Positions 24-9,931 are shown, numbered from the stretch's first letter. The stretch: DNA of 64,000 nt from an uncultured archaeon (GCA_964549685.1 CAZJVE010000003.1:17706-81705), one strand, 5' to 3'. Numbers and translations are program-made. The notes: generated by a model not told the origin, from the letters alone.

Positions 24-830
24 CTAAAAACCAACCTGACAGGATTCCTCGTAGTCGATTAATTCCTTGATGGTTGGATTTTCTCCGCAGACAGGGCAGT
101 TTGGGTCTCTTTGGGTTCTGACCTCCCGAAAGCTCATCTCCAGAGCGTTATAAAGCAGGAGCCTATTTTTCAATAGGTCTCCTACACCGAGGATGTACTT
201 GAGCGCTTCTGTCGCCTGTATCAAGCCGACAACCCCCGGCAGGACGCCAAGGACTCCGGCTTCCTGACAGCTGGGAACCATTCCAGGAGGAGGCGGTTCC
301 GGGAAGAGGCACCTGTAGCATGCTCCTTCCTTTGGAATTATTGTGGTTGCCTGTCCCTCAAACCTGAACACGGAGCCATGAACCAGGGCCTTTCCTGCCA
401 AAACTGCGGCATCATTAACCAGGTAGCGTGTCGGAAAATTATCGCAACCGTCTACGATTACGTCATAGTCCTTTACTATATCAAGTATATTCTCGGATGT
501 CAGCCTCTCCTGATGCAGAATTACCTCTGTATCTGGATTAAGCAGCTCGATTTTTTCTTTTGCCGATATGGTCTTCTCCCCGTCAAGGTCCTTTACTGTG
601 TGGAGAATCTGCCTCTGGAGATTGCTAAGCTCTACCGTGTCAGAATCGACTATACCCAGCTTCCCTACCCCGGCAGCCGCGAGGTATATTGTTGAGGGGC
701 ATCCAAGCCCTCCCGCACCTATGGCAAGCACCCTGGCTTCGTTTATCTTCTTCTGTCCCTTCCCACCAACCTCTGGCAAGATTATATGCCTGCTATATCT
801 CTTTATCTGCTCCTCAGTAAATTCAACCAT
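24..830 (-). CDS. E1-like adenylyltransferase, ThiF/MoeB/UbaA family
   Basis: ORF 24..845. Motifs 'SRHIILPEVG' and 'LAIGAGGLGCP' (Rossmann fold), plus two CxxC pairs (CYRC, CPVC) as in the MoeB/ThiF zinc site. The track start at 845 is TTG. The first ATG (MVEFTEEQ) is at 830, 21 nt after the stop of the upstream GG protein. Confidence 0.9.
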   Translation of the reverse strand: MVEFTEEQIKRYSRHIILPEVGGKGQKKINEARVLAIGAGGLGCPSTIYLAAAGVGKLGIVDSDTVELSNLQRQILHTVKDLDGEKTISAKEKIELLNPDTEVILHQERLTSENILDIVKDYDVIVDGCDNFPTRYLVNDAAVLAGKALVHGSVFRFEGQATTIIPKEGACYRCLFPEPPPPGMVPSCQEAGVLGVLPGVVGLIQATEALKYILGVGDLLKNRLLLYNALEMSFREVRTQRDPNCPVCGENPTIKELIDYEESCQVGF

Positions 831-851
831 TTTGGGGATTCTCAACCAGTT

Positions 852-1127
852 TTAACCTCCTGCGATAGCAGGTACAATCGATACCTCACTGTCTTCATTC
901 ACCGAAGTATCAAGGCCTTCAGAGAACCTTATGTCTTCCCCGGCTACATAGATATTCACAAACCTTCTCACTTTTCCATCCTCATCGAGAAGCTTTTCCT
1001 TGATTCCAGCATATTGTTTATTCAGATTCTCTACCAGTTCCCTTACATTGCCGCCCTCAGAGTTCACCTCAAGTTCCCCCCCAGTCAGCTTGGTAAGGGG
1101 TGTCGGTATTCTAACTTTTATTGACAT
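852..1127 (-). CDS. MoaD/ThiS-family ubiquitin-like sulfur-carrier protein (SAMP-like), C-terminal Gly-Gly
   Basis: The translation ends '...VSIVPAIAGG' followed by the stop. Size is about 91 aa. An ATG at 1127 (MSIKVRIP) is preceded by GGAGGTGA. Lies immediately upstream of the E1-like gene. Confidence 0.85.
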   Translation of the reverse strand: MSIKVRIPTPLTKLTGGELEVNSEGGNVRELVENLNKQYAGIKEKLLDEDGKVRRFVNIYVAGEDIRFSEGLDTSVNEDSEVSIVPAIAGG

Positions 1128-1144
1128 GTTGTCACCTCCAATGA

Positions 1145-1158
1145 TTAACAATTGTTAA
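1145..1158. promoter_or_regulatory. Palindrome TTAACAATTGTTAA in the 5' leader of the GG-protein gene
   Basis: Perfect 14-nt palindrome between the predicted TATA box and the SD/ATG. A near-identical copy lies at 3242-3255. Confidence 0.5.
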
Positions 1159-1204
1159 TATATTAATGATAGTGATATTTGTATATAAATATTAATATGG
1201 TAAA

Positions 1205-1224
1205 AATATGCTAATATGCATAAT
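1205..1224. promoter_or_regulatory. Operator-like palindrome AATATGC-N6-GCATAAT upstream of the GG-protein/E1 operon
   Basis: One mismatch to ATTATGC-N6-GCATAAT. On the gene strand it lies 8-9 nt upstream of ATTAATATTTATATA (BRE/TATA). Confidence 0.65.
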
Positions 1225-1244
1225 TAATCCACTAAGGGCGTAAA

Positions 1245-1318
1245 AGCAGGGAGGGGGATTTGAACCCCCGATCGTCGGTCTGCAACCGACTGCCTTAACC
1301 GGGCTTGGCCACCCCTGC
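1245..1318 (-). tRNA. tRNA-Cys (GCA)
   Basis: The reverse complement folds as a cloverleaf: acceptor GCAGGGG/TCCCTGC, anticodon stem GTCGG/CCGAC with loop TTGCAGA (anticodon GCA), T arm GGGGG-TTCAAAT-CCCCC, discriminator U. 74 nt, no encoded CCA. Confidence 0.9.
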
Positions 1319-1399
1319 ACCGGGTTAAATGCTGTTGGGATATCAAAACGTATAAGGGTAAAAACAAGGGTAAATGTAATCACTGCCGTACGTTGGCAG

Positions 1400-1918
1400 C
1401 TATTGCTCTATTTTACACCAGTTCTTGTTGAATATTTCGCTGAAGGACAGGCCCTTCTGCTTTAGTCTCACATACTCCTCTAACTCTCTGATGAATCTTG
1501 TGGCCCATTTCTCAATCTCGGCCTTTACGTTCTCGTCGAGGTTGCTTCCCCGTCCGTATCCCGGGCATCCCCCGATTGCTTTCAATCTCAGTATGATTTC
1601 ATCCCCGTATGCTATGCCATTGAATTTGAACGGGAGCATCCTGCAGAACAGCGGCTGCTTGTCGATTTTATGCAGCTCGCAGGAATAATCGTCGTTCAGG
1701 AAGTGGCACTTTCCGTCATGCTCCCGGGTTTTGAGTCTGAACAACCCCGGCTTGTCCTCGCTGGAATGGATGAATTCCTCCGGCTTAAGCTTTGTGGCAT
1801 CGGAAATTCTCTTTATGCTGCCTATCGTTATCAGCGGCGGTTCGCAGCAAAATGCCTTGCATTCCTTGTATGCGCATTCCCACCTCTCTATTCCGTCTTT
1901 GGATATTATTTCAATCAT
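1400..1918 (-). CDS. YkgJ/UPF0153-type cysteine-cluster (Fe-S or Zn) protein
   Basis: N-terminal 'CAYKECKAFCC' (CxxxxCxxxCC) plus further conserved Cys (CHF, CELH, FCRMLP, GGCPGYG). Its ATG overlaps the stop of the upstream ThrC-like gene (ATGA). Confidence 0.6.
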   Translation of the reverse strand: MIEIISKDGIERWECAYKECKAFCCEPPLITIGSIKRISDATKLKPEEFIHSSEDKPGLFRLKTREHDGKCHFLNDDYSCELHKIDKQPLFCRMLPFKFNGIAYGDEIILRLKAIGGCPGYGRGSNLDENVKAEIEKWATRFIRELEEYVRLKQKGLSFSEIFNKNWCKIEQ

Positions 1919-3240
1919 TTTACCTCGTCCAGGAGTTGTTTAGCCTCGCTCTCGAATCCAAATTTTTTGCCGTATTCGAGTAAGTCGTCCTCTATCCTTC
2001 CATTCCCCGAACCGGTGATGTTTGCAACCACGACGCTGCCCTCTTTTAGGTCTCCCTGCCGCACCCCCTTTACAATACCGGCCAGGGTTACCCCGCCAAC
2101 GAATTGTGAAAATATTCCCTCCTTGAAATAGAGGTCAAGCGTGCTTTTGAGTATGTCTCCCTCACTGACGCCCCAGCCCCCTCCGTTGCTCTTTTTAATG
2201 ACATCTAAAGTTTGATACCCACTGCCGGGATTTCCGATGGCTATGCTCTTTGCAACGGTCTTTGGATTCTTTATTGGAACTATCTCCCCTGTTGATATTG
2301 CATCTATTATTGGAGAACAGTCCTCTGACTGGGCCCCCCACATCCTTACATCATTGTCGAACAGGCCAAGGTCTCTTAATTCCCCTATGCCCTTGTATGC
2401 GGAACAGAAGAGCGCGCCGCTTCCCAGAGGGTATACGATGTTTACAGCCCCGTCTTTTATCTGCTCCTTGAGCTGAAGCGCTATCTCTGTCCCCGAGGTT
2501 TTTGAGCCCTCCTTGTAGTATGGCCTGAAGCTGCTGTTCGGGACAAAGGATTTCTTTTTGCCGGTTTTTTTGAGTTCTTCCTCGTTTGCCTTCTCGCAAT
2601 CGTTCATGGCCTTGATGTTTGTCTCGTCATAGCTTCCATCGTACTCTATCAAATCGTTTGGATGGGGAAGGTAGTGTCGTATGGCATCCTTTTTAACCTC
2701 ACCCAGGCTTTCAGGCACATAGGCCCTGCAGGTTATGCCAGTTTCCCTTGCTAAATATGCAGTAGCTACAGCCAGGTTTCCTGTCGATGCTACATAGACA
2801 GTATTATAACCTGCTTCCAGGGCTTTGTTAAAGGCCAAAGTAACAGGCCTGTCCTTGAACGACCTTGTCGGGTTGGTTTCGGTTGAGTCTAATTTGAAGT
2901 ACAGTTCTATGCCAAGCTCGTCTCCAATCTCCTTCGACTTTACAAGCGGGGTGTATGGGGTTTCCCCGGATACAGCTACTTCATCCACTGGAAGGAGTTC
3001 CTTCAGCTTCCAGAAGTTGTCCGGTCTTTTGTTTAATTCATCCTCCGTGAGCACATCCCTTAGTGCATTGTAGTCGTACTTCACATCCAGCGGGCCCATG
3101 CAGAGGTCATAGCATATGTTCACCATGGTCGTGCCCTGCTCCTCTTTGAGCTTCTCCAGGCTGTATTTCTCGCCGCAGTTCAGGCATTCCAGATGACTTA
3201 CATAGCCAAACCCCGAGGTCGTATTATCCACGCTTTCCAT
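1915..3240 (-). CDS. Threonine-synthase-like fold-type II PLP enzyme with N-terminal zinc ribbon
   Basis: 441 aa. 'CLNCGEKY' ribbon, PLP-lysine context 'NPTRSFKDR', glycine-rich 'STGNLAVATA' and 'PLGSGAL' loops typical of ThrC and Trp-synthase-beta-like enzymes. Confidence 0.8.
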   Translation of the reverse strand: MESVDNTTSGFGYVSHLECLNCGEKYSLEKLKEEQGTTMVNICYDLCMGPLDVKYDYNALRDVLTEDELNKRPDNFWKLKELLPVDEVAVSGETPYTPLVKSKEIGDELGIELYFKLDSTETNPTRSFKDRPVTLAFNKALEAGYNTVYVASTGNLAVATAYLARETGITCRAYVPESLGEVKKDAIRHYLPHPNDLIEYDGSYDETNIKAMNDCEKANEEELKKTGKKKSFVPNSSFRPYYKEGSKTSGTEIALQLKEQIKDGAVNIVYPLGSGALFCSAYKGIGELRDLGLFDNDVRMWGAQSEDCSPIIDAISTGEIVPIKNPKTVAKSIAIGNPGSGYQTLDVIKKSNGGGWGVSEGDILKSTLDLYFKEGIFSQFVGGVTLAGIVKGVRQGDLKEGSVVVANITGSGNGRIEDDLLEYGKKFGFESEAKQLLDEVK

Positions 3241-3241
3241 G

Positions 3242-3255
3242 TTAACAATCGTTAA
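3242..3255. promoter_or_regulatory. Palindrome-like TTAACAATCGTTAA abutting the ThrC-like start codon
   Basis: TTAAC-N4-GTTAA inverted repeat directly upstream of ATG 3240. Homologous to 1145-1158. Confidence 0.5.
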
Positions 3256-3299
3256 TATTTATAATGTTGGTATTTTTATTTAAATATTAAGGGTATAGA

Positions 3300-3319
3300 A
3301 TTATGCATATCAGCATAAT
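3300..3319. promoter_or_regulatory. Operator-like perfect palindrome ATTATGC-N6-GCATAAT upstream of the ThrC-like/YkgJ operon
   Basis: On the gene strand it is followed after 9 nt by TTAATATTTAAATA (BRE/TATA), 37 nt before the ATG. Confidence 0.65.
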
Positions 3320-3327
3320 ATCATATT

Positions 3328-4134
3328 TTATACGTGTTTCCCACGCTGCCGTAGAATATCCTTCGTGTAATCCAGCCAGTGTTTCTCGGCCCTGACGAAA
3401 TTCCTCAGTATTCCAATTTTCTCAATCTCAATTTCAACGGTGTCTCGGTCGCTCAGTTTTCCAACGCATGGAACAGTCCCGGTTGCAATTAAATCCCCCG
3501 TCTCAAGCTTCATGAATCTGCTAACGAACCTTACGCATTCATCGGGAGAATATATCATATCCGAGGTTTTTGCGTCCTGTCTTAATTTCCCATTAACCCG
3601 GCAGCGTATTCTTAGGCTGTCTGGGTCCAGGTCGGTATTGACGTAAGGCCCCGTCGGGCAGAAGGTCGGGAAGCTCTTGGACGGGCTCCACTGACCCATG
3701 TCGTGCTGGATGTCTCTTGCTGTCACGTCGTTGACGATAGTATAGCCTAGGACGTGCTCCTGCGGATTTTCGATCCTATAGCCATCTTTCCCGATGATTA
3801 TTCCAAGCTCTGCCTCGTGGTCGACCCTGTCCGAGATATCCGGTAGAAGTATATTCTGATTATGTCCCAGCAACGAGCTCGGCGCCTTTAGGGCTATGGT
3901 TGGTTTTTTTGTCGCTATCTCCTTGAGTTGGATTGCATGCTTCCCGTAATTGAATCCTATGCAGGTTATTTTTCCCGGCTTTACGGGGGGTAGAAATTCT
4001 ACTTCCTCTTCCTTGTAAACTGCCCCGGTTTCCTTCCCGGGATTGAACAGATTTCCATCTATTTCCTTGATTTTACCAGGGGATGAAATCCCGATTTTTT
4101 CTAAATTCTCGACTTTGAACCTGCAGAGTTTCAC
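3328..4134 (-). CDS. Fumarylacetoacetate hydrolase (FAH) family protein
   Basis: 268 aa. 'MKLCRFKV...' N-terminus, 'DHEAELGIIIGK' and 'GDLIATGT' motifs typical of FAH/HpcE-type hydratases or decarboxylases. GTG start. Confidence 0.8.
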   Translation of the reverse strand: MKLCRFKVENLEKIGISSPGKIKEIDGNLFNPGKETGAVYKEEEVEFLPPVKPGKITCIGFNYGKHAIQLKEIATKKPTIALKAPSSLLGHNQNILLPDISDRVDHEAELGIIIGKDGYRIENPQEHVLGYTIVNDVTARDIQHDMGQWSPSKSFPTFCPTGPYVNTDLDPDSLRIRCRVNGKLRQDAKTSDMIYSPDECVRFVSRFMKLETGDLIATGTVPCVGKLSDRDTVEIEIEKIGILRNFVRAEKHWLDYTKDILRQRGKHV

Positions 4135-4193
4135 AGTCCTACCTCTTGGTTTAAGGATAGTTGATATTCTTGTTTAAATAGTATATACATAAA

Positions 4194-4213
4194 ATTATGC
4201 ACGTGCGCATAAT
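4194..4213. promoter_or_regulatory. Operator-like perfect palindrome ATTATGC-N6-GCATAAT in the divergent FAH / nadA-iscS-iscU promoter region
   Basis: Flanked on both sides by TATA-like boxes: ATTATTTATATG toward nadA after 9 nt, and TTTATGTATATA toward the FAH gene. Confidence 0.65.
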
Positions 4214-4259
4214 CATAACAATATTATTTATATGTCTCGGATGCACTATGGATAACGGG

Positions 4260-5168
4260 ATGGCTCAATCAGACATTGTGGGAAGGATCCAGAATTTGAA
4301 GAAGGATAGAAATGCGATTATCCTTGCCCATAACTATCAGCCCGGCGAGGTGCAGGACGTTGCGGATTATCTGGGGGATTCCCTGGAGCTCAGCAGGATT
4401 GCTGCAAAGAGCGAAGCCGAGGTTATTGTATTCTGTGGAGTGCATTTCATGGCTGAGACTGCTTCCATTCTATCGCCGGACAAAAAGGTTCTGTTGCCTG
4501 ACATAGACGCCAGATGCCCGATGGCCGACATGATTACCGCTGACGGCCTGAGGGAACTGAAGGCAAAACATCCCGACGCAAAGGTAGTCGGCTATGTCAA
4601 TACTACTGCAGATGTAAAGGCGGAGATGGATATCTGCTGTACATCAACCAATGCTATCAAGGTCATAAATTCTCTGGAGGGAGATGAGGTTATCTTCGTC
4701 CCAGACAAGTATCTGGCAGACTATGTCTCCAAGCACACTGACAAGAAGATTATACCATGGAACGGTTCCTGTCCAACCCATGTGAAGATAACGCCTGAAG
4801 ACATAGAGAAACAGAGGGGGCTTCATCCGGAGGCAAAGGTGATTGTGCACCCGGAATGTACGCCCGCAGTAATAGAGGTTGCTGATGAGGCCTTGTCAAC
4901 CGGCGGAATGTGTAAGTATGTGCGAGAGTCGAATGCCAGGGAATTCATCATCGGTACGGAGACCGGAATCATCCACAGACTCAAGAAGGAGAATCCGGAT
5001 AAGGAATTCTATCCTGCCTCGGAGCTGGCTGTCTGTCCGAACATGAAGAAGATAAACCTCGAGAAGGTGCTCTGGGCGCTTGAGGATATGAAACACGAGG
5101 TCAAGGTGCCTGAGGAAATCAGAATGAAGGCAAAACAAGCAGTCGACAGAATGCTTGAGATTGCATAG
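4260..5168 (+). CDS. nadA: Quinolinate synthase NadA
   Basis: 'AIILAHNYQPGEVQDVADYLGDSLELSR', 'FCGVHFMAETA', 'CPMA', 'CCTSTNA', 'HPEC'. The track start at 4197 lies inside an operator palindrome and adds a non-conserved hydrophobic leader. ATG 4260 (or 4248) sits about 25 nt downstream of a TTTATATG TATA box, which would make the transcript leaderless. Confidence 0.9.
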   Translation: MAQSDIVGRIQNLKKDRNAIILAHNYQPGEVQDVADYLGDSLELSRIAAKSEAEVIVFCGVHFMAETASILSPDKKVLLPDIDARCPMADMITADGLRELKAKHPDAKVVGYVNTTADVKAEMDICCTSTNAIKVINSLEGDEVIFVPDKYLADYVSKHTDKKIIPWNGSCPTHVKITPEDIEKQRGLHPEAKVIVHPECTPAVIEVADEALSTGGMCKYVRESNAREFIIGTETGIIHRLKKENPDKEFYPASELAVCPNMKKINLEKVLWALEDMKHEVKVPEEIRMKAKQAVDRMLEIA

Positions 5169-5169
5169 A

Positions 5170-6324
5170 ATGAAAAGAATCTATCTGGACCATGCGGCAA
5201 CCACTCCGGTGGACCCGGAGGTCAGGAAGGCGATGGAGCCCTTTCTTTCCGATAACTTCGGTAATGCCTCGTCACTGCACTCCTTTGGAAGGGAGACGAA
5301 GCAGGCGCTGGAGGAGAGCAGGGGGAAGATAGCTGAGAGGCTGGGCGCCAGCCCTGATGAGATAGTCTTCACCTCCAGAGGGACCGAATCCAATAACCTC
5401 GCGCTGAAGGGAGTCGCGTTCGCGAACAGGAAGAAGGGAAAGCACATTATAACATCAAAGATTGAGCACGACTGCGTCCTGAATTCCTGCAAGTGGCTGG
5501 AGAACGAGGGGTTCGAGGTGGAGTATCTGGATGTGGACAGGGAGGGATTTATTGACATGAGAAAGCTAGGGGATTCCATCAGAGACGATACGATTCTTGT
5601 CTCGATTATTCATGGAAATAATGAGATTGGAACAATTCAGAATCTCAAGGAAATAGGGAAAATCTGCTCGGAAAAGGACGTCTATTTCCATACCGATGCC
5701 TGTCAGAGCTTCACAAAGGTTCCACTGGACGTCGGGAAACATAATCTCGACCTTGTCACGATAAATTCCCACAAGATTTACGGGCCAAAGGGGGTAGGAG
5801 CTCTGTTTGTCAGAAAGGGCACGAGAATCATCCCGTGGCAGCACGGCGGCGGCCATGAATTCAACAAGCGCAGCGGGACGGAAAATATTCCCGCCATAGT
5901 TGGATTTGCGAAGGCGACTGATGTTACGGGGGAGAAGGAGATTCAGCACATGACCGGGTTGAGGGATAGGCTGATTGCTGAAATCCCTGGAGAATTCCCT
6001 GACTCCTGGCTGAACGGCCCCAAGGAGAATAGATTGTGCAACAATGCAAACTTCTCATTCAAGCATATTGAAGGCGAGTCCATAGTCCTACGAATGGACC
6101 AGAAGGGTATTGCGGTATCGACGGGTTCGGCCTGCTCATCCCACTCATTGGAGCCCAGTCACGTCATGATTGCAATAGGTCTCAAGCCGGAAGAAGCTCA
6201 TGGAAGCGTCAGGATTACTGTGGGTAAGGAGAATACAATGGAGGAAATAGAGTTTGCGATAGAATCTCTCAGGGAGGTGACTGACGGGCTCAGGAAGATG
6301 AGCCCATTCGTGAAAAATGTATAG
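5170..6324 (+). CDS. iscS: Cysteine desulfurase (NifS/IscS class)
   Basis: 'IYLDHAATTPVDPEV', 'SIIHGNNEIGTIQ', 'NSHKIYGPKG' (PLP Lys), 'STGSACSS' (active-site Cys loop). ATG at 5170, 2 nt after the nadA stop. The track start at 5155 is TTG. Confidence 0.92.
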   Translation: MKRIYLDHAATTPVDPEVRKAMEPFLSDNFGNASSLHSFGRETKQALEESRGKIAERLGASPDEIVFTSRGTESNNLALKGVAFANRKKGKHIITSKIEHDCVLNSCKWLENEGFEVEYLDVDREGFIDMRKLGDSIRDDTILVSIIHGNNEIGTIQNLKEIGKICSEKDVYFHTDACQSFTKVPLDVGKHNLDLVTINSHKIYGPKGVGALFVRKGTRIIPWQHGGGHEFNKRSGTENIPAIVGFAKATDVTGEKEIQHMTGLRDRLIAEIPGEFPDSWLNGPKENRLCNNANFSFKHIEGESIVLRMDQKGIAVSTGSACSSHSLEPSHVMIAIGLKPEEAHGSVRITVGKENTMEEIEFAIESLREVTDGLRKMSPFVKNV

Positions 6325-6788: not shown

Positions 6789-7170
6789 CTATATAAATCT
6801 TATTAACGGTAGCATACTGGTTGGCCTTATCCTCCTTGCAATGTATTTTGTAGTCATGAATATGCGCACCTTCCTTCTGCCGGAGCACGTGGGCCACGTG
6901 GTTGCTTTCGGTCCCGGTGGTGAGGCTGACAACGTTCTCGGAATCTACAAAGACTGCAACTCCTGCCAGATATCCGAGAATTCGGGCAGGCTTGCCTTCC
7001 CTATCAAGATAAAGCTGGACGATAAATCGGTAGTTGACGCGGAGATAAGTCCCTGCTCCCTCTGCATGGATAAGGTAAAGGTGGGGGACAAGGTGGGGGT
7101 AACAACGGTCGGTTCCAGGTGCATTGCACAGAAGCTTGGTAAATTCACAATCCACCATAAGTCAGACTAA
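6778..7170 (+). CDS. Small membrane-anchored Cys-rich protein (hypothetical), first gene of the 13-gene operon
   Basis: 130 aa. Hydrophobic N-terminal helix 'GSILVGLILLAMYFVVMNM', two CxxC pairs (CNSC, CSLC). No family recognised. Start uncertain because of the tandem repeat. Confidence 0.5.
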   Translation: MYVDYINLINGSILVGLILLAMYFVVMNMRTFLLPEHVGHVVAFGPGGEADNVLGIYKDCNSCQISENSGRLAFPIKIKLDDKSVVDAEISPCSLCMDKVKVGDKVGVTTVGSRCIAQKLGKFTIHHKSD

Positions 7171-7171
7171 A

Positions 7172-8536
7172 ATGATGCTCTTGGGCTTGGATGTGTTGGG
7201 TCTCATCGGACTGGTGATGTTTTTTGGAGTCCTGATAGCCTCTCTTAAGGGATGGATTCCACAGGACGTACTGCCCGTGCAGTCGGCACTTGTTCTGACC
7301 GCCCTTGTGCTGGTTATTGTCGCTTTCCTCTTCGGTAAGCCAATAGGGATTAAGGATTTGATGGCGAATATCTTCCTCCATCCGATTACAGCATTAATCG
7401 GCGGTTTTCTTGTTGCGGGGGCACTGGAGGCGTCCGGGGCCTTCAAGGCTGCCATTAATCTCCTGGAGAAACTGGCGAAAACGCCGCTCGGTTTAACAGG
7501 GACTGTTGTTGTCCTGGTGAATATGCCCACAATCTTTGCGATGCCCTGTGGGAGAATTCTCGCTGCTGCATTAATGCCGGCGGCAATTCTGTTCGGCTTC
7601 ACCCTCGCAAAGGTCAAAAAGGATACGCTTCTCGCGAGCATAGTTGTCTTTGGCTTTATTGTCAATGCTGCTGCCTCCTGTGGACCCTCGCCGCTTGGAG
7701 GCATCGGGATGATTGGCGAGGGGATGGGCGGCTACCCACTTGGTTCTTTCATAAATGCTCAGCAGATAGGCATTATGTTGATAACGGCAGTTGCAATGAT
7801 ATCTGTAAGATTTGTCTATAAGATTCTTCCCAATGAGTCCATAACAGCAAAGCTCCTTGCGGAGGAGTCCGGAGAGGATGAGGGAGAGGAGAAGAATAAG
7901 GGAGAAAAGAAGGTGGAGATTCCGAAGTCCGGTTATTTTTCATTTTTCTTCTTCATGGTCGGGATTGCCATCGTGTTTATAGCAAGGCCACCGATTCCGA
8001 TACAGACAATCCTCATGTTCTTCGTGCTGGTTATAATGTTAGCCAGCAGGGTATCGATAAAGGACCTGATAGGTGGGGTGATACTGCACCCGATAATGGC
8101 CATGATATCCGGCTTTATAATTGCAGGGGCTCTTGTGGCCATCGGCAGCTTCGATGTCCTGATTCAGATTCTTATGGTCATAGCGGAAACTCCGCTTGGC
8201 TTTATAGGTGTTGTTGTCATCCTTGCGAATATCCCGACAATCCTGCCCATGCCCTGTGGAAGGATAATAGCCATGGCGTTGATGCCCGGCATACTTATGT
8301 TTGGTCTGAGGGTCAGTGAGATAACAGGGAATGTATGGATAGTTCCGCTGGTGCTGGTGGGGTTCATAATTAATGCTGCTGCCTCCTGCGGCCCTTCGCC
8401 GCTTGGAGGCATCGGCGGAATTGGCGAGGGCAACCTTGGAACGGCAATAGGAATCTCAGGACGGCCGCAGCAGGTCGGGATAATGATAGGGACAGGGACA
8501 GCGGTGCTGATAATAGGCATGGTGGGGTTTATCTAA
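7172..8536 (+). CDS. Polytopic membrane transporter with internal two-fold duplication and conserved Cys motifs (family not recognised)
   Basis: Both halves carry 'LHPI(T/M)A(L/M)I(G/S)GF', 'ETPLG / KTPLG', 'MPCGRI(L/I)A(A/M)ALMP' and 'INAAASCGPSPLGGIG'. An acidic linker 'EESGEDEGEEKNKGEKK' joins them. ATG-ATG at 7172, 1 nt after the previous stop. The track start at 7124 is TTG. Confidence 0.75.
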   Translation: MMLLGLDVLGLIGLVMFFGVLIASLKGWIPQDVLPVQSALVLTALVLVIVAFLFGKPIGIKDLMANIFLHPITALIGGFLVAGALEASGAFKAAINLLEKLAKTPLGLTGTVVVLVNMPTIFAMPCGRILAAALMPAAILFGFTLAKVKKDTLLASIVVFGFIVNAAASCGPSPLGGIGMIGEGMGGYPLGSFINAQQIGIMLITAVAMISVRFVYKILPNESITAKLLAEESGEDEGEEKNKGEKKVEIPKSGYFSFFFFMVGIAIVFIARPPIPIQTILMFFVLVIMLASRVSIKDLIGGVILHPIMAMISGFIIAGALVAIGSFDVLIQILMVIAETPLGFIGVVVILANIPTILPMPCGRIIAMALMPGILMFGLRVSEITGNVWIVPLVLVGFIINAAASCGPSPLGGIGGIGEGNLGTAIGISGRPQQVGIMIGTGTAVLIIGMVGFI

Positions 8537-8539
8537 AAA

Positions 8540-8683
8540 ATGGCATTTGAACTATTCACGATATCGATAGGGGTAGGGATCTTATCTGGAGCCATAATAA
8601 ACATCTCCCTGGGATACAAATTTTACGACAAGGGTGGTCTGCTGGGAGGCCTTGCAGTGGGCCTTATGATGGCGGTACTCTAG
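8540..8683 (+). CDS. Mini membrane protein, 47 aa (below the ORF-track cutoff)
   Basis: Hand translation: MAFELFTISIGVGILSGAIINISLGYKFYDKGGLLGGLAVGLMMAVL. Two hydrophobic, glycine-zipper-like helices. 3 nt after the transporter stop. Paralogous to the next ORF. Confidence 0.6.
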   Translation: MAFELFTISIGVGILSGAIINISLGYKFYDKGGLLGGLAVGLMMAVL

Positions 8684-8684
8684 A

Positions 8685-8840
8685 ATGGACAGTACAGAAT
8701 TAAAAGGACTCGGCCTGATGGTAGGGGCAGGAATACTGACAGGGATTATGTTCAATATAGGTATTATGAAGGACCCGTTTAACATGGGGGGAATCCTTGG
8801 TGGCTTTGTCACAGGGATTCTGATGTACATATTTTCATAA
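8685..8840 (+). CDS. Mini membrane protein, 51 aa, paralog of 8540..8683
   Basis: Hand translation: MDSTELKGLGLMVGAGILTGIMFNIGIMKDPFNMGGILGGFVTGILMYIFS. Shares the pattern G.GIL.G...NI...GG(L/I)LGG..(V/T)G..M with the preceding ORF. 1-nt and 2-nt gaps to its neighbours. Confidence 0.6.
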   Translation: MDSTELKGLGLMVGAGILTGIMFNIGIMKDPFNMGGILGGFVTGILMYIFS

Positions 8841-8842
8841 AA

Positions 8843-9322
8843 ATGGAAAAGAGACTAAGGCAATTCAACGTGGGGATGTTCATGATAGCGGCATTGATCC
8901 TGGGGGCTCTGGTCTTTACGGGCTTCATGTCGGGGCATCCATGGGCCCTGACCTGCTACCAGTGCAAGGCATGTAACCTCAAGTGCCCCTTGGGCTATGA
9001 CGTTTCACTTTTTGTGGCGGCATCGGCAACGAACAATCCCAATCTTTATATGAGCGCAACGAATCTCCAGCTCACAGTGGAAGAGGCCTATGAAACCGAC
9101 AGGAATATGCTGGTGGAGGTTGAGGGGAAAAAGATGACGGCTGAGGAGGCCCATGGAGAATTCAAACCGGACATGGTGGTCTGGGCAAGGAAGCTCAGGG
9201 TTAAGGACGCTGCGAAATTCGACCCGATAGACGGGTACTGCGACAGCCTGTGTCCAATAGGCCTGCCGGTAACCAATGCGATAAGAGACCTCAAATCGGA
9301 CGGGGAATTCAACGGAAGATAA
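8843..9322 (+). CDS. Single-pass membrane-anchored ferredoxin-like protein (one complete CxxCxxCxxxCP motif plus a CxxxCP remnant)
   Basis: N-terminus 'KRLRQ' then helix 'FNVGMFMIAALILGALVFTGF'. Motifs 'CYQCKACNLKCP' and 'CDSLCP'. HdrC/SdhB-like spacing with a helical insert between the motifs. Confidence 0.65.
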   Translation: MEKRLRQFNVGMFMIAALILGALVFTGFMSGHPWALTCYQCKACNLKCPLGYDVSLFVAASATNNPNLYMSATNLQLTVEEAYETDRNMLVEVEGKKMTAEEAHGEFKPDMVVWARKLRVKDAAKFDPIDGYCDSLCPIGLPVTNAIRDLKSDGEFNGR

Positions 9323-9325
9323 AAA

Positions 9326-9931
9326 ATGGATAAGAAGAATCTCGTAATGTTTTTGGCGATAATGGGGGTCCTGGTGGCCCTCTCCTATGTAAACATGCTC
9401 GGCGAGGGGGCTGAGTTAGTGAGAAAGGGAAAGCCGATAATCAGGGAGGCCTTCTCAGATGCCGATTATAAGATGGAAATAACCGACGGGAAGCTGTTAG
9501 TAAAATTTGCCTCATATGTTGCAAACGAGTACGAAGGCGAGTTCCTTGCAGTCTATGCCTATGACGCTGATGGAAACCACGTAATGAAGATGAAGAGGGT
9601 AGTCAATGGAAATATCGTCATAAACAAGGACGAGATTCCAAGCTTCGTGGCGAGCTTTGAAGGCAATGTGATAAAGGATATCGAAAAGGCCGAACAGTCG
9701 CTCAGGTTCCTGGAGATATTGCAGGATGCAAAAAGGGAGGGTAGAAACCTCGGGGTTGAGAGGTGCCTCATGGGCAAGAGATGCATAGCCATCTGTCCTG
9801 CAGCAGCAATAGAGGTGCTGATAAGGGATGATGAAAGCAACGGCAGAATCATCCCAGACATAGATTACGATAAATGCATCGAGGGCGGTTTATGTGCCAG
9901 CAGGTGTCCAACCGATTTGATAGTAACATAG
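9326..9931 (+). CDS. Single-pass membrane-anchored protein with C-terminal ferredoxin-like domain carrying two C-x5-C-x3-CP motifs
   Basis: Helix 'LVMFLAIMGVLVALSYV'. 'CLMGKRCIAICP' and 'CIEGGLCASRCP'. In both motifs the second Cys of the canonical CxxCxxCxxxCP is replaced by Gly. Confidence 0.65.
   Translation: MDKKNLVMFLAIMGVLVALSYVNMLGEGAELVRKGKPIIREAFSDADYKMEITDGKLLVKFASYVANEYEGEFLAVYAYDADGNHVMKMKRVVNGNIVINKDEIPSFVASFEGNVIKDIEKAEQSLRFLEILQDAKREGRNLGVERCLMGKRCIAICPAAAIEVLIRDDESNGRIIPDIDYDKCIEGGLCASRCPTDLIVT

Follow-up and report, generated by a model that had tools for sequence, protein, structure and literature searches.

A gene cluster at positions 24-3240 of a 64,000-nt stretch of archaeal DNA (GCA_964549685.1, CAZJVE010000003.1:17706-81705; hereafter the window) combines a pyridoxal phosphate (PLP) enzyme of the threonine synthase (ThrC) family with a ubiquitin-fold carrier ending in Gly-Gly and a ThiF/MoeB/UbaA-type activating enzyme (E1). 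We propose, with a probability of roughly 65% and on the strength of sequence comparisons, that the PLP enzyme is a homocysteine synthase that acts on O-phosphohomoserine and depends on the thiocarboxylate of the carrier. The original prediction for this DNA, made from the sequence alone, was that the ThrC-like enzyme may be a thiocarboxylate-using sulfhydrylase; paralogy, a phylogenetic tree, and a gene order kept in 10 of 10 archaeal loci now lend support to that idea. The five genes all lie on the minus strand at the coordinates first predicted and are transcribed in the order PLP enzyme, Cys-rich protein, tRNA-Cys, carrier, E1:

1915-3240, minus strand: ThrC-family fold-type II PLP enzyme (441 aa; PF00291, 188.5 bits)
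1400-1918, minus strand: Cys-rich protein, YkgJ-like by cysteine pattern only (172 aa)
1245-1318, minus strand: tRNA-Cys(GCA), between the two transcription units (ARAGORN)
852-1127, minus strand: ubiquitin-fold carrier of the SAMP1/MoaD/MetO type with a Gly-Gly end (91 aa; PF02597 ThiS, 53.8 bits)
24-845, minus strand: ThiF/MoeB/UbaA-type E1 adenylyltransferase (273 aa; PF00899 ThiF, 280 bits)

Several details of the original prediction are borne out by this layout. The genes of the PLP enzyme and the Cys-rich protein share an ATGA stop/start overlap, read directly as gaggtaaaATGAttg; the Gly-Gly protein directly precedes the E1; and the tRNA-Cys separates the two operons. The premise of a methane-metabolizing archaeon did not hold. 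The closest homologues carry the names Altiarchaeota or Altarchaeaceae, the source organism is an Altiarchaeota archaeon, and no McrA was detectable in its genome (G000; 1.17 Mb in 27 contigs, ∼85% complete).

The PLP enzyme stands apart from threonine synthases

The 441-aa PLP enzyme is not its genome's threonine synthase; the only names that databases give its family are "pyridoxal-phosphate dependent enzyme" and "threonine synthase." It falls below the cut-off of every curated threonine synthase model (143.9/144.6 bits against TIGR00260 thrC, cut-off 167.1; 181 against PRK08197, cut-off 303). A second, canonical thrC, which the original prediction had proposed to look for, lies on contig C12 and scores 274 bits (cut-off 167), and each of the 13 other genomes with a ThrC-like paralogue (13/13) likewise encodes a canonical ThrC, in one or two copies that pass the cut-off. 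The match to the cysteate synthase structure 9k3c is weak and confined to the C-terminal part. Cysteate synthase (45.6 bits against TIGR03844, cut-off 324.9) and CysM were ruled out as identities by model scores together with the conserved synteny with the carrier; CysM/CysK models span 34-39 bits (35.7 against TIGR01138, cut-off 394; 34 against TIGR01136, cut-off 344).

The active site has changed in a specific way. The enzyme has an N-terminal four-Cys zinc ribbon and a PLP lysine, K129, in an SFKDRP motif, and K129 is invariant across 28 clade members. Where threonine synthases have NPxRxEGQKT and GNAGN, the window enzyme carries RPYYKEGSKT (FRPYYKEGSKT) and GSGAL; four solved threonine synthases keep both N-S-V-N-P-x-R-x-E-G-Q-K-T and the PLP-phosphate loop G-N-A-G-N. 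The Arg of NPxRxEGQKT, which corresponds to the phosphate-binding R160 of the Thermus thermophilus enzyme, is kept in 92% of the canonical ThrC copies and is replaced by Tyr in 100% of both the window clade and a bacterial MetM-like clade. Both of these clades place an Arg three residues earlier, share the RPYYxEGSKT motif, and have replaced the GNAGN loop. All three groups still have the PLP lysine, an STGN motif, and the four-Cys ribbon at the N terminus.

In a maximum-likelihood tree, made alongside a larger and quicker one, the window clade, the bacterial MetM-like clade, and the canonical ThrCs (taken from the same genomes) are each monophyletic with support of at least 100/98. The phylogeny that the original prediction had called for thus sets the PLP enzyme apart from threonine synthases and beside the MetM-like clade, which is linked to S-adenosylmethionine (SAM) riboswitches and ThiS. 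Members of the window clade occur in Altiarchaeota, Woesearchaeota, Peribacteria, Gracilibacteria, and other bacteria of the Candidate Phyla Radiation (CPR). A contig scan for the family with two peptide patterns yielded 13 loci, and the true distribution is probably wider.

A bacterial MetM-like clade

The three members of the bacterial clade that we examined adjoin ThiS-like carriers, and genes for ThiF, NIL, aspartate-semialdehyde dehydrogenase, or cysteine desulfurase also lie near members of the clade. Rfam SAM riboswitches precede two of these three loci. In the actinomycete Nonomuraea, a SAM riboswitch, an enzyme that falls within the MetM-like clade, and a 91-aa Gly-Gly carrier follow one another in a row, so that such riboswitches stand upstream of three clade members in total. 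The Nonomuraea homologue served as a stand-in for Streptomyces albulus MetM; it came from a plasmid collection, the record being in fact a chromosome. At the archaeal and CPR loci, the SAM riboswitch gave no Rfam match.

According to PMC13759103 and PMC12172450, which summarize Hasebe et al. 2024 (Appl Environ Microbiol 90:e01247-24), MetM and MetO together with MoeZ and Mec convert O-phospho-L-homoserine to homocysteine in S. albulus, where a threonine synthase homologue (metM) has a SAM riboswitch upstream and is joined by a thiocarboxylate carrier (metO). The Streptomyces pathway had been named in the original prediction, correctly so by GapMind 2026 (PMC13759103, citing Hasebe et al. 2024). 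By gene content and order, the arrangement in the bacterial clade matches the one these papers report for S. albulus metM/metO.

Carrier and E1 follow the ThrC-like gene across archaea

The survey of co-occurrence suggested with the original prediction gave a uniform result: a carrier and an E1 follow the ThrC-like gene in 10 of 10 distinct archaeal loci, whose enzymes are 64-90% identical to that of the window. The order is ThrC-like enzyme, optional YkgJ-like protein, carrier, optional NIL, E1, and TusA. In Woesearchaeota, the operon reads NifS, enzyme, ThiS, NIL, ThiF, TusA, and a clade member at 44% identity has ThiS directly downstream. In CPR bacteria, NIL is followed by the enzyme, with MetK nearby in Peribacteria; the NIL protein inside the operon is a stand-alone one in both Woesearchaeota and CPR. 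One Peribacteria locus (L056, G009:C17:9500-15607; 2286-5309, minus strand) has a ThiS-family Gly-Gly carrier, the sole good ThiS match in its genome, which shares its operon with MetE (cobalamin-independent methionine synthase), split there into an N-like and a catalytic half. In an Altiarchaeia genome (G003; L013, G003:C19), a PALP+CBS protein and a Cys/Met PLP enzyme (6937-9466, minus strand) diverge from the ThrC-like operon over an operator-bearing intergenic region (operator at 9622-9635). By sequence, this pair looks like a cystathionine beta-synthase and a gamma-lyase type enzyme, which would lead from homocysteine to cysteine.

Two further observations concern the distribution of the family. 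Deep-branching members occur as tandem PALP-PALP pairs with no ThiS neighbor (L023, 4403-7392; L061, 4614-7452) and may be a functionally different subgroup. Clusters of the Altiarchaeota type, at 69-76% identity, lie on records labeled "Caldisericum sp." (L012, JAIMJY010000045.1) and "Methanosarcinales" (L015, CAZKBD010000008.1); mis-binning is the likely cause, horizontal transfer the alternative.

The carrier ends in AIAGG followed by the stop codon. Translation most likely begins with the ATG at 1127, behind GGAGGTGA, rather than with the TTG at 1151 given by the ORF lister. The carrier scores 57.4 bits against the SAMP1 model NF041918 (cut-off 60), is the single ThiS-family match detected in G000, and shows a full-length identity of 54% with the carrier that follows the Nonomuraea SAM-riboswitch MetM-like gene and identities of 43-52% with those adjoining other MetM-like or ThrC-like genes. 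Judged by these identities, the carriers that adjoin ThrC-like and MetM-like genes are one family. The E1 consists of a ThiF domain only (Pfam) and has no rhodanese domain; it scores 289.6 bits against the MoeB subfamily model PRK05690 (cut-off 266) and 354.7 against the UbaA model NF047750 (cut-off 450).

A molybdopterin role was ruled out for the carrier. Neither G000 nor 12 of 14 searched genomes has a MoaE match (PF02391), which means that the carrier does not belong to a molybdopterin synthase. Co-variation of the Gly-Gly protein and E1 with molybdopterin genes, named in the original prediction as a contrary outcome, is thus not seen; the pair keeps its place behind the ThrC-like gene. 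tRNA thiolation, and perhaps SepCysS, probably draw on this one carrier as well, and the carrier/E1 pair is probably multi-purpose, as in Haloferax. A small JAMM protein is encoded elsewhere in the genome, at C15.

The cluster opens a sulfur regulon

A palindrome, TTAACRATTGTTAA, of the form TTAAC(A/G)ATTGTTAA, stands directly before the start codons of both the PLP enzyme and the carrier. Dinucleotide-preserving shuffles of the window gave a mean of 0.47 matches. Genome-wide, this proximal palindrome has five sites at ≤2 mismatches, all in the first 21 kb of contig C3; the three further sites (L004, G000:C3:1-19000; 65-78, 1027-1040, and 3967-3980) precede a Thi4 operon, a 119-aa HTH_3 protein, and, in a variant form, a membrane-anchored winged-helix protein. 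Three other Altiarchaeota genomes, with enzymes of 68-90% identity, have it before their orthologues as well; the proximal palindrome is therefore conserved and no chance match. A distal palindrome, ATTATGC-N6-GCATAAT, lies upstream of four units: the PLP enzyme, the carrier operon, a nadA-nifS pair (window 4194-4213), and the divergent promoter of a COG1900/HTH-CBS region (L057, G000:C14; 4183-4202). The shared operator and duplicated promoter of the original prediction are thus present and are joined by a second palindrome upstream of both units. The sites and neighboring genes in the window are as follows:

1145-1158, no strand: proximal palindromic operator TTAACAATTGTTAA, before the carrier gene; conserved in L011 and L013
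3242-3255, no strand: proximal palindromic operator TTAACGATTGTTAA, which ends one base short of the PLP enzyme's ATG; conserved in L011 and L016
1205-1224, no strand: distal palindrome of the ATTATGC-N6-GCATAAT type with one mismatch, upstream of the carrier operon
3300-3319, no strand: distal palindrome ATTATGC-N6-GCATAAT, exact, upstream of the PLP enzyme; conserved in L011
5155-6324, plus strand: NifS/IscS-type cysteine desulfurase in the nadA-nifS pair (TIGR03402, 502 bits)
3328-4134, minus strand: fumarylacetoacetate-hydrolase family gene (PF01557, 202 bits)

The operon that begins with the carrier and E1 is a tightly packed run of 19 genes over ∼15 kb, with gaps or overlaps of a few bases, continuing from window position 24 into L004 (4009-18829, minus strand). 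The E1 is followed by a ThiI PP-loop protein, TusA, thioredoxin, DUF169, SepCysS (TIGR02539, 386.8 bits; cut-off 365), and TauE; then by a thioredoxin-dependent APS reductase, ATP sulfurylase, a second TusA, a small sulfite reductase, and a SerA-like dehydrogenase; and at the end by six siroheme/tetrapyrrole genes (sirC, hemB, hemC, cobA-hemD, hemA, and hemL). The PLP-enzyme/carrier cluster is the front end of a large sulfur regulon, and since the palindromic operators are shared, both units and the sulfur operon appear to be switched together. G000 also encodes SepRS, and since SepCysS lies directly behind the carrier, E1, and TusA relay, this relay may be what supplies the sulfur when cysteine is made on tRNA.

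Several neighbors deserve a brief mention. Two proteins are candidate autoregulated regulators, the HTH_3 protein (119 aa, L004:151-510) and the membrane-anchored winged-helix protein (163 aa, L004:511-1002), and the HTH-CBS protein (C14:4202-4762) is a plausible SAM- or methionine-sensing regulator. The Thi4 operon (L004 1041-3963, minus strand) encodes Thi4, LarE (320 bits, cut-off 150), an archaeal ThrRS editing domain, and a TtuA/NcsA-like thiolase. A tRNA-Thr-ED is genetically coupled to some SepCysS genes (Mukai et al. 2017, PMC5424206), and on C3 of G000 the ThrRS editing domain and SepCysS are co-regulated. The genome has two tRNA-Cys(GCA) genes of clearly different sequence, one in the window at 1245-1318 and one at G000:C4:59230-59303; the copy inside the regulon, which is kept at that place only in the closest relative, L011, might be a dedicated SepRS substrate. 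The fumarylacetoacetate-hydrolase family gene, between the ThrC-like gene and nadA, has no evident link to sulfur genes.

The YkgJ-like protein

The protein coupled to the PLP enzyme had been labeled YkgJ-type in the original prediction. Its cysteine pattern fits that label, with C-x3-CC ... C ... C ... PLFCRxLPF resembling YkgJ/UPF0153 (PF03692 is CxxCxxCC), but the window protein itself has no Pfam match, even at E≤1. We found nine homologues, all in Altiarchaeales, of which one (1/9) has a precomputed PF03692 match. The invariant cysteines are C20, C24, C25, C71, C80, C92, and C118. An AlphaFold2 model built from the nine-sequence alignment has a mean pLDDT of 41, too low to be of use. Besides the window, three loci have the protein: L011 and L012 carry it where the window does, and in L016 it lies upstream of the PLP enzyme. 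Among the loci examined, it and the stand-alone NIL protein are mutually exclusive, and two loci have neither. As a guess, it could be a metal-binding or Fe-S accessory protein in sulfur transfer or product release.

A proposed route to homocysteine

We propose that the PLP enzyme would eliminate phosphate from O-phospho-L-homoserine to form a PLP-bound vinylglycine intermediate, as threonine synthase does. Sulfur would then be added at C-gamma, where threonine synthase adds water at C-beta, and homocysteine would result. The donor would be the C-terminal thiocarboxylate of the 91-aa Gly-Gly carrier, which the adjacent E1 would adenylate. The sulfur would then reach the carrier either as sulfide made by the co-regulated sulfate-reduction genes or through a persulfide relay of TusA, the ThiI PP-loop protein, and NifS; the window NifS is a possible persulfide source. 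The sequences show gene content, paralogy, phylogeny, motif changes, synteny, operators, and phylogenetic profiles; from these we infer which substrate is used and which product formed, that the carrier and not free sulfide gives the sulfur, and how homocysteine leaves the carrier. The presence of a canonical thrC in every genome with the family implies, indirectly, that O-phosphohomoserine is available there.

The evidence favors homocysteine over cysteine as the product. The sister clade is SAM-regulated, NIL, MetK, and MetE are recurrent companions, and the pair in G003 would lead from homocysteine to cysteine; homocysteine is favored on these grounds. Because a NifS-type cysteine desulfurase heads the Woesearchaeota operon, cysteine is likely the sulfur donor there and not the product. 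The distal palindrome also marks the COG1900 homocysteine gene, which we count as support. Further, six Woesearchaeota and CPR genomes have a methionine synthase (MetH in two Woesearchaeota, MetE in four CPR) and no other recognized route to homocysteine, COG1900 and a true MetY/MetB/MetC-type enzyme being absent from all six. In these genomes, as judged from their gene content, the ThrC-like enzyme is the only candidate homocysteine synthase.

Other observations weigh against the proposal. The window clade is a sister to the MetM-like clade at ∼38-40% identity and is not nested inside it, and the MetM-like label was itself given for agreement with what is described for S. albulus MetM: control by a SAM riboswitch, a carrier gene next to it, a relative in actinomycetes, and homologues in cyanobacteria. 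CPR members have NIL with no carrier beside the enzyme, which may therefore be able to use free sulfide, and the deep clade members P0067, P0044, and P0065 have no ThiS neighbor. The carrier is the sole ThiS-family carrier in G000, and ThiI, TusA, and the TtuA/NcsA-like protein are co-regulated with it, from which it follows that the carrier/E1 pair is not dedicated to the PLP enzyme. G000 also has COG1900, NIL-ferredoxin, and an ApbE-like gene on contig C14. As the COG1900/NIL-ferredoxin route is present, the proposed pathway is redundant in G000 and leaves no pathway gap to fill; we dropped the gap argument for this genome, and it holds only for Woesearchaeota and CPR. Cysteine is already covered in G000 by SepRS and SepCysS, and the tRNA-Cys, SepCysS, and SerA-like gene in the regulon would also fit a cysteine-related role. 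MetE (PF01717) and MetH (PF02574) were undetected in G000, G001, G004, and G006, all of which have COG1900, an absence that says little, as the Methanosarcina acetivorans control gave no match to either model. A canonical homoserine kinase scored above the cut-off in only 1 of 14 genomes; alternative homoserine kinases exist (PMC5764234, PMC13759103). The two homocysteine routes of G000 could possibly be split by sulfur source, COG1900 using free sulfide and the regulon protein-bound sulfide from sulfate reduction.

Three other accounts of the PLP enzyme have to be weighed. One is that it is a cysteine synthase on a ThrC scaffold, making free cysteine from O-phosphoserine and the carrier thiocarboxylate alongside SepRS and SepCysS. 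The tRNA-Cys between the units and the SepCysS and SerA-like dehydrogenase in the carrier operon would suit this, as would the existence of an O-phosphoserine-using member of the ThrC family (cysteate synthase) and the resemblance of the carrier family to mycobacterial CysO. We consider it improbable: the SAM riboswitches of the sister clade and the NIL, MetK, and MetE associations indicate methionine, a cysteine desulfurase starts the Woesearchaeota operon, the homocysteine-to-cysteine operon of G003 would be pointless if cysteine were the direct product, and CysM/CysK models reach only 34-39 bits. Equally doubtful to us is the account in which the enzyme uses free sulfide or sulfite, the carrier and E1 serve tRNA thiolation, thiamine, and perhaps SepCysS or protein conjugation, and their adjacency reflects shared regulation. 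It draws on the carrier being the only one of the ThiS family in the genome, on ThiI, two TusA, the TtuA/NcsA-like protein, LarE, and Thi4 in the operator-marked set, on the CPR members with NIL beside the ThrC-like gene and no carrier there, and on the APS reductase and TauE sulfite exporter in the operon, cysteate synthase being a ThrC relative. The carrier, however, comes directly after the enzyme at every one of the 10 archaeal loci and also in the 44%-identity member, the pairing recurs in the bacterial sister clade, the cysteate synthase model gives 45.6 bits against a cut-off of 324.9, and the Peribacteria carrier adjoins MetE rather than thiolation genes.

That the enzyme is a second, divergent threonine synthase we regard as very unlikely. 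In favor of it, threonine synthase models and structures give the best named matches, and the PLP lysine, STGN motif, and zinc ribbon are kept; against this stand scores below all curated threonine synthase cut-offs, one or two canonical copies in every carrying genome, a replaced phosphate-site Arg and GNAGN loop, and synteny and regulation with sulfur genes. Carrier-dependent synthesis of homocysteine from O-phosphohomoserine is the reading we prefer.

Relation to known systems

The closest parallel is MetM/MetO. Both systems pair an extra threonine synthase paralogue with a Gly-Gly ubiquitin-fold carrier and a ThiF-type E1; the active-site motif changes of the window enzyme are common to the SAM-riboswitch-linked bacterial clade, and the window carrier shares 54% identity with that of the actinomycete MetM-like operon. 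The differences are several. The window clade lies at ∼38% identity and in Altiarchaeota, Woesearchaeota, and CPR; the window locus has two palindromic operators instead of a SAM riboswitch; its E1, unlike MoeZ, has no rhodanese domain, with TusA, ThiI, and NifS as the likely relay; its carrier already ends in Gly-Gly, so that Mec-type maturation is unneeded; its enzyme is translationally coupled to the YkgJ-like Cys-rich protein; and the cluster is embedded in a sulfate-assimilation/SepCysS operon. The proposed mechanism is the one already known for MetM/MetO. What is new, as far as gene sequences and contexts tell, is the clade and the archaeal and CPR hosts in which it occurs, an E1 that lacks rhodanese and has a likely TusA/ThiI/NifS relay instead, control by operators, a YkgJ-like partner, and the union with a sulfate-assimilation/SepCysS operon.

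A carrier-thiocarboxylate route to homocysteine with MetY was reportedly described by Krishnamoorthy and Begley in 2011 (cited in PMC5764234). There too the carrier thiocarboxylate is the sulfide donor for homocysteine and the genes are clustered with sulfate assimilation, as at the window, whereas MetY is a fold-type I O-acetylhomoserine sulfhydrylase and the window enzyme a fold-type II threonine synthase homologue with O-phosphohomoserine as its predicted substrate. CysO, CysM, MoeZ, and Mec make up a cysteine synthesis system of Mycobacterium tuberculosis. That system and the window have in common the carrier family, the thiocarboxylate chemistry, and a phosphorylated amino acid as acceptor (the last two predicted for the window), but CysM has the CysK fold and uses O-phosphoserine, and the window enzyme scores 34-39 bits against CysM/CysK models. 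COG1900 (HcyBio, MA1821) and NIL-ferredoxin (MA1822) of methanogens share with the window system the end product homocysteine (predicted for the window) and the NIL association, and in G000 the COG1900 gene on C14 has the same distal palindrome as the window units. The enzymes are unrelated, and the COG1900 route starts from aspartate semialdehyde and sulfide, not from O-phosphohomoserine as predicted here. The SAMP/UbaA system of Haloferax likewise has one rhodanese-less E1 and a SAMP1/MoaD-type Gly-Gly carrier that probably serve several sulfur transfers; in contrast, the window carrier is fixed beside a PLP enzyme, G000 has no MoaE, and the window proteins stay just below the SAMP1 and below the UbaA equivalog cut-offs.

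An extended version, in which one carrier, loaded in these Altiarchaeota with sulfide from sulfate reduction, would through its thiocarboxylate be a sulfur hub for the MetM-like enzyme with its lineage-specific Cys-rich partner, for SepCysS, and for tRNA and thiamine thiolation, under two-palindrome control that includes the COG1900 genes, is speculative and on balance unlikely.

Implications

To our knowledge, the physiological sulfur donor of SepCysS is still unknown. With SepCysS directly downstream of the carrier, E1, and TusA relay, this long-open question becomes approachable. If the proposed function is correct, the MetM/MetO pathway of 2024 would extend to Archaea, and the enzyme, carrier, and E1 form a compact, defined gene set that is testable in Escherichia coli. 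For Woesearchaeota and several CPR bacteria, the same function would also provide the step that makes homocysteine for methionine; these organisms are usually presumed to be methionine auxotrophs and yet have MetH or MetE without a recognized route to homocysteine.

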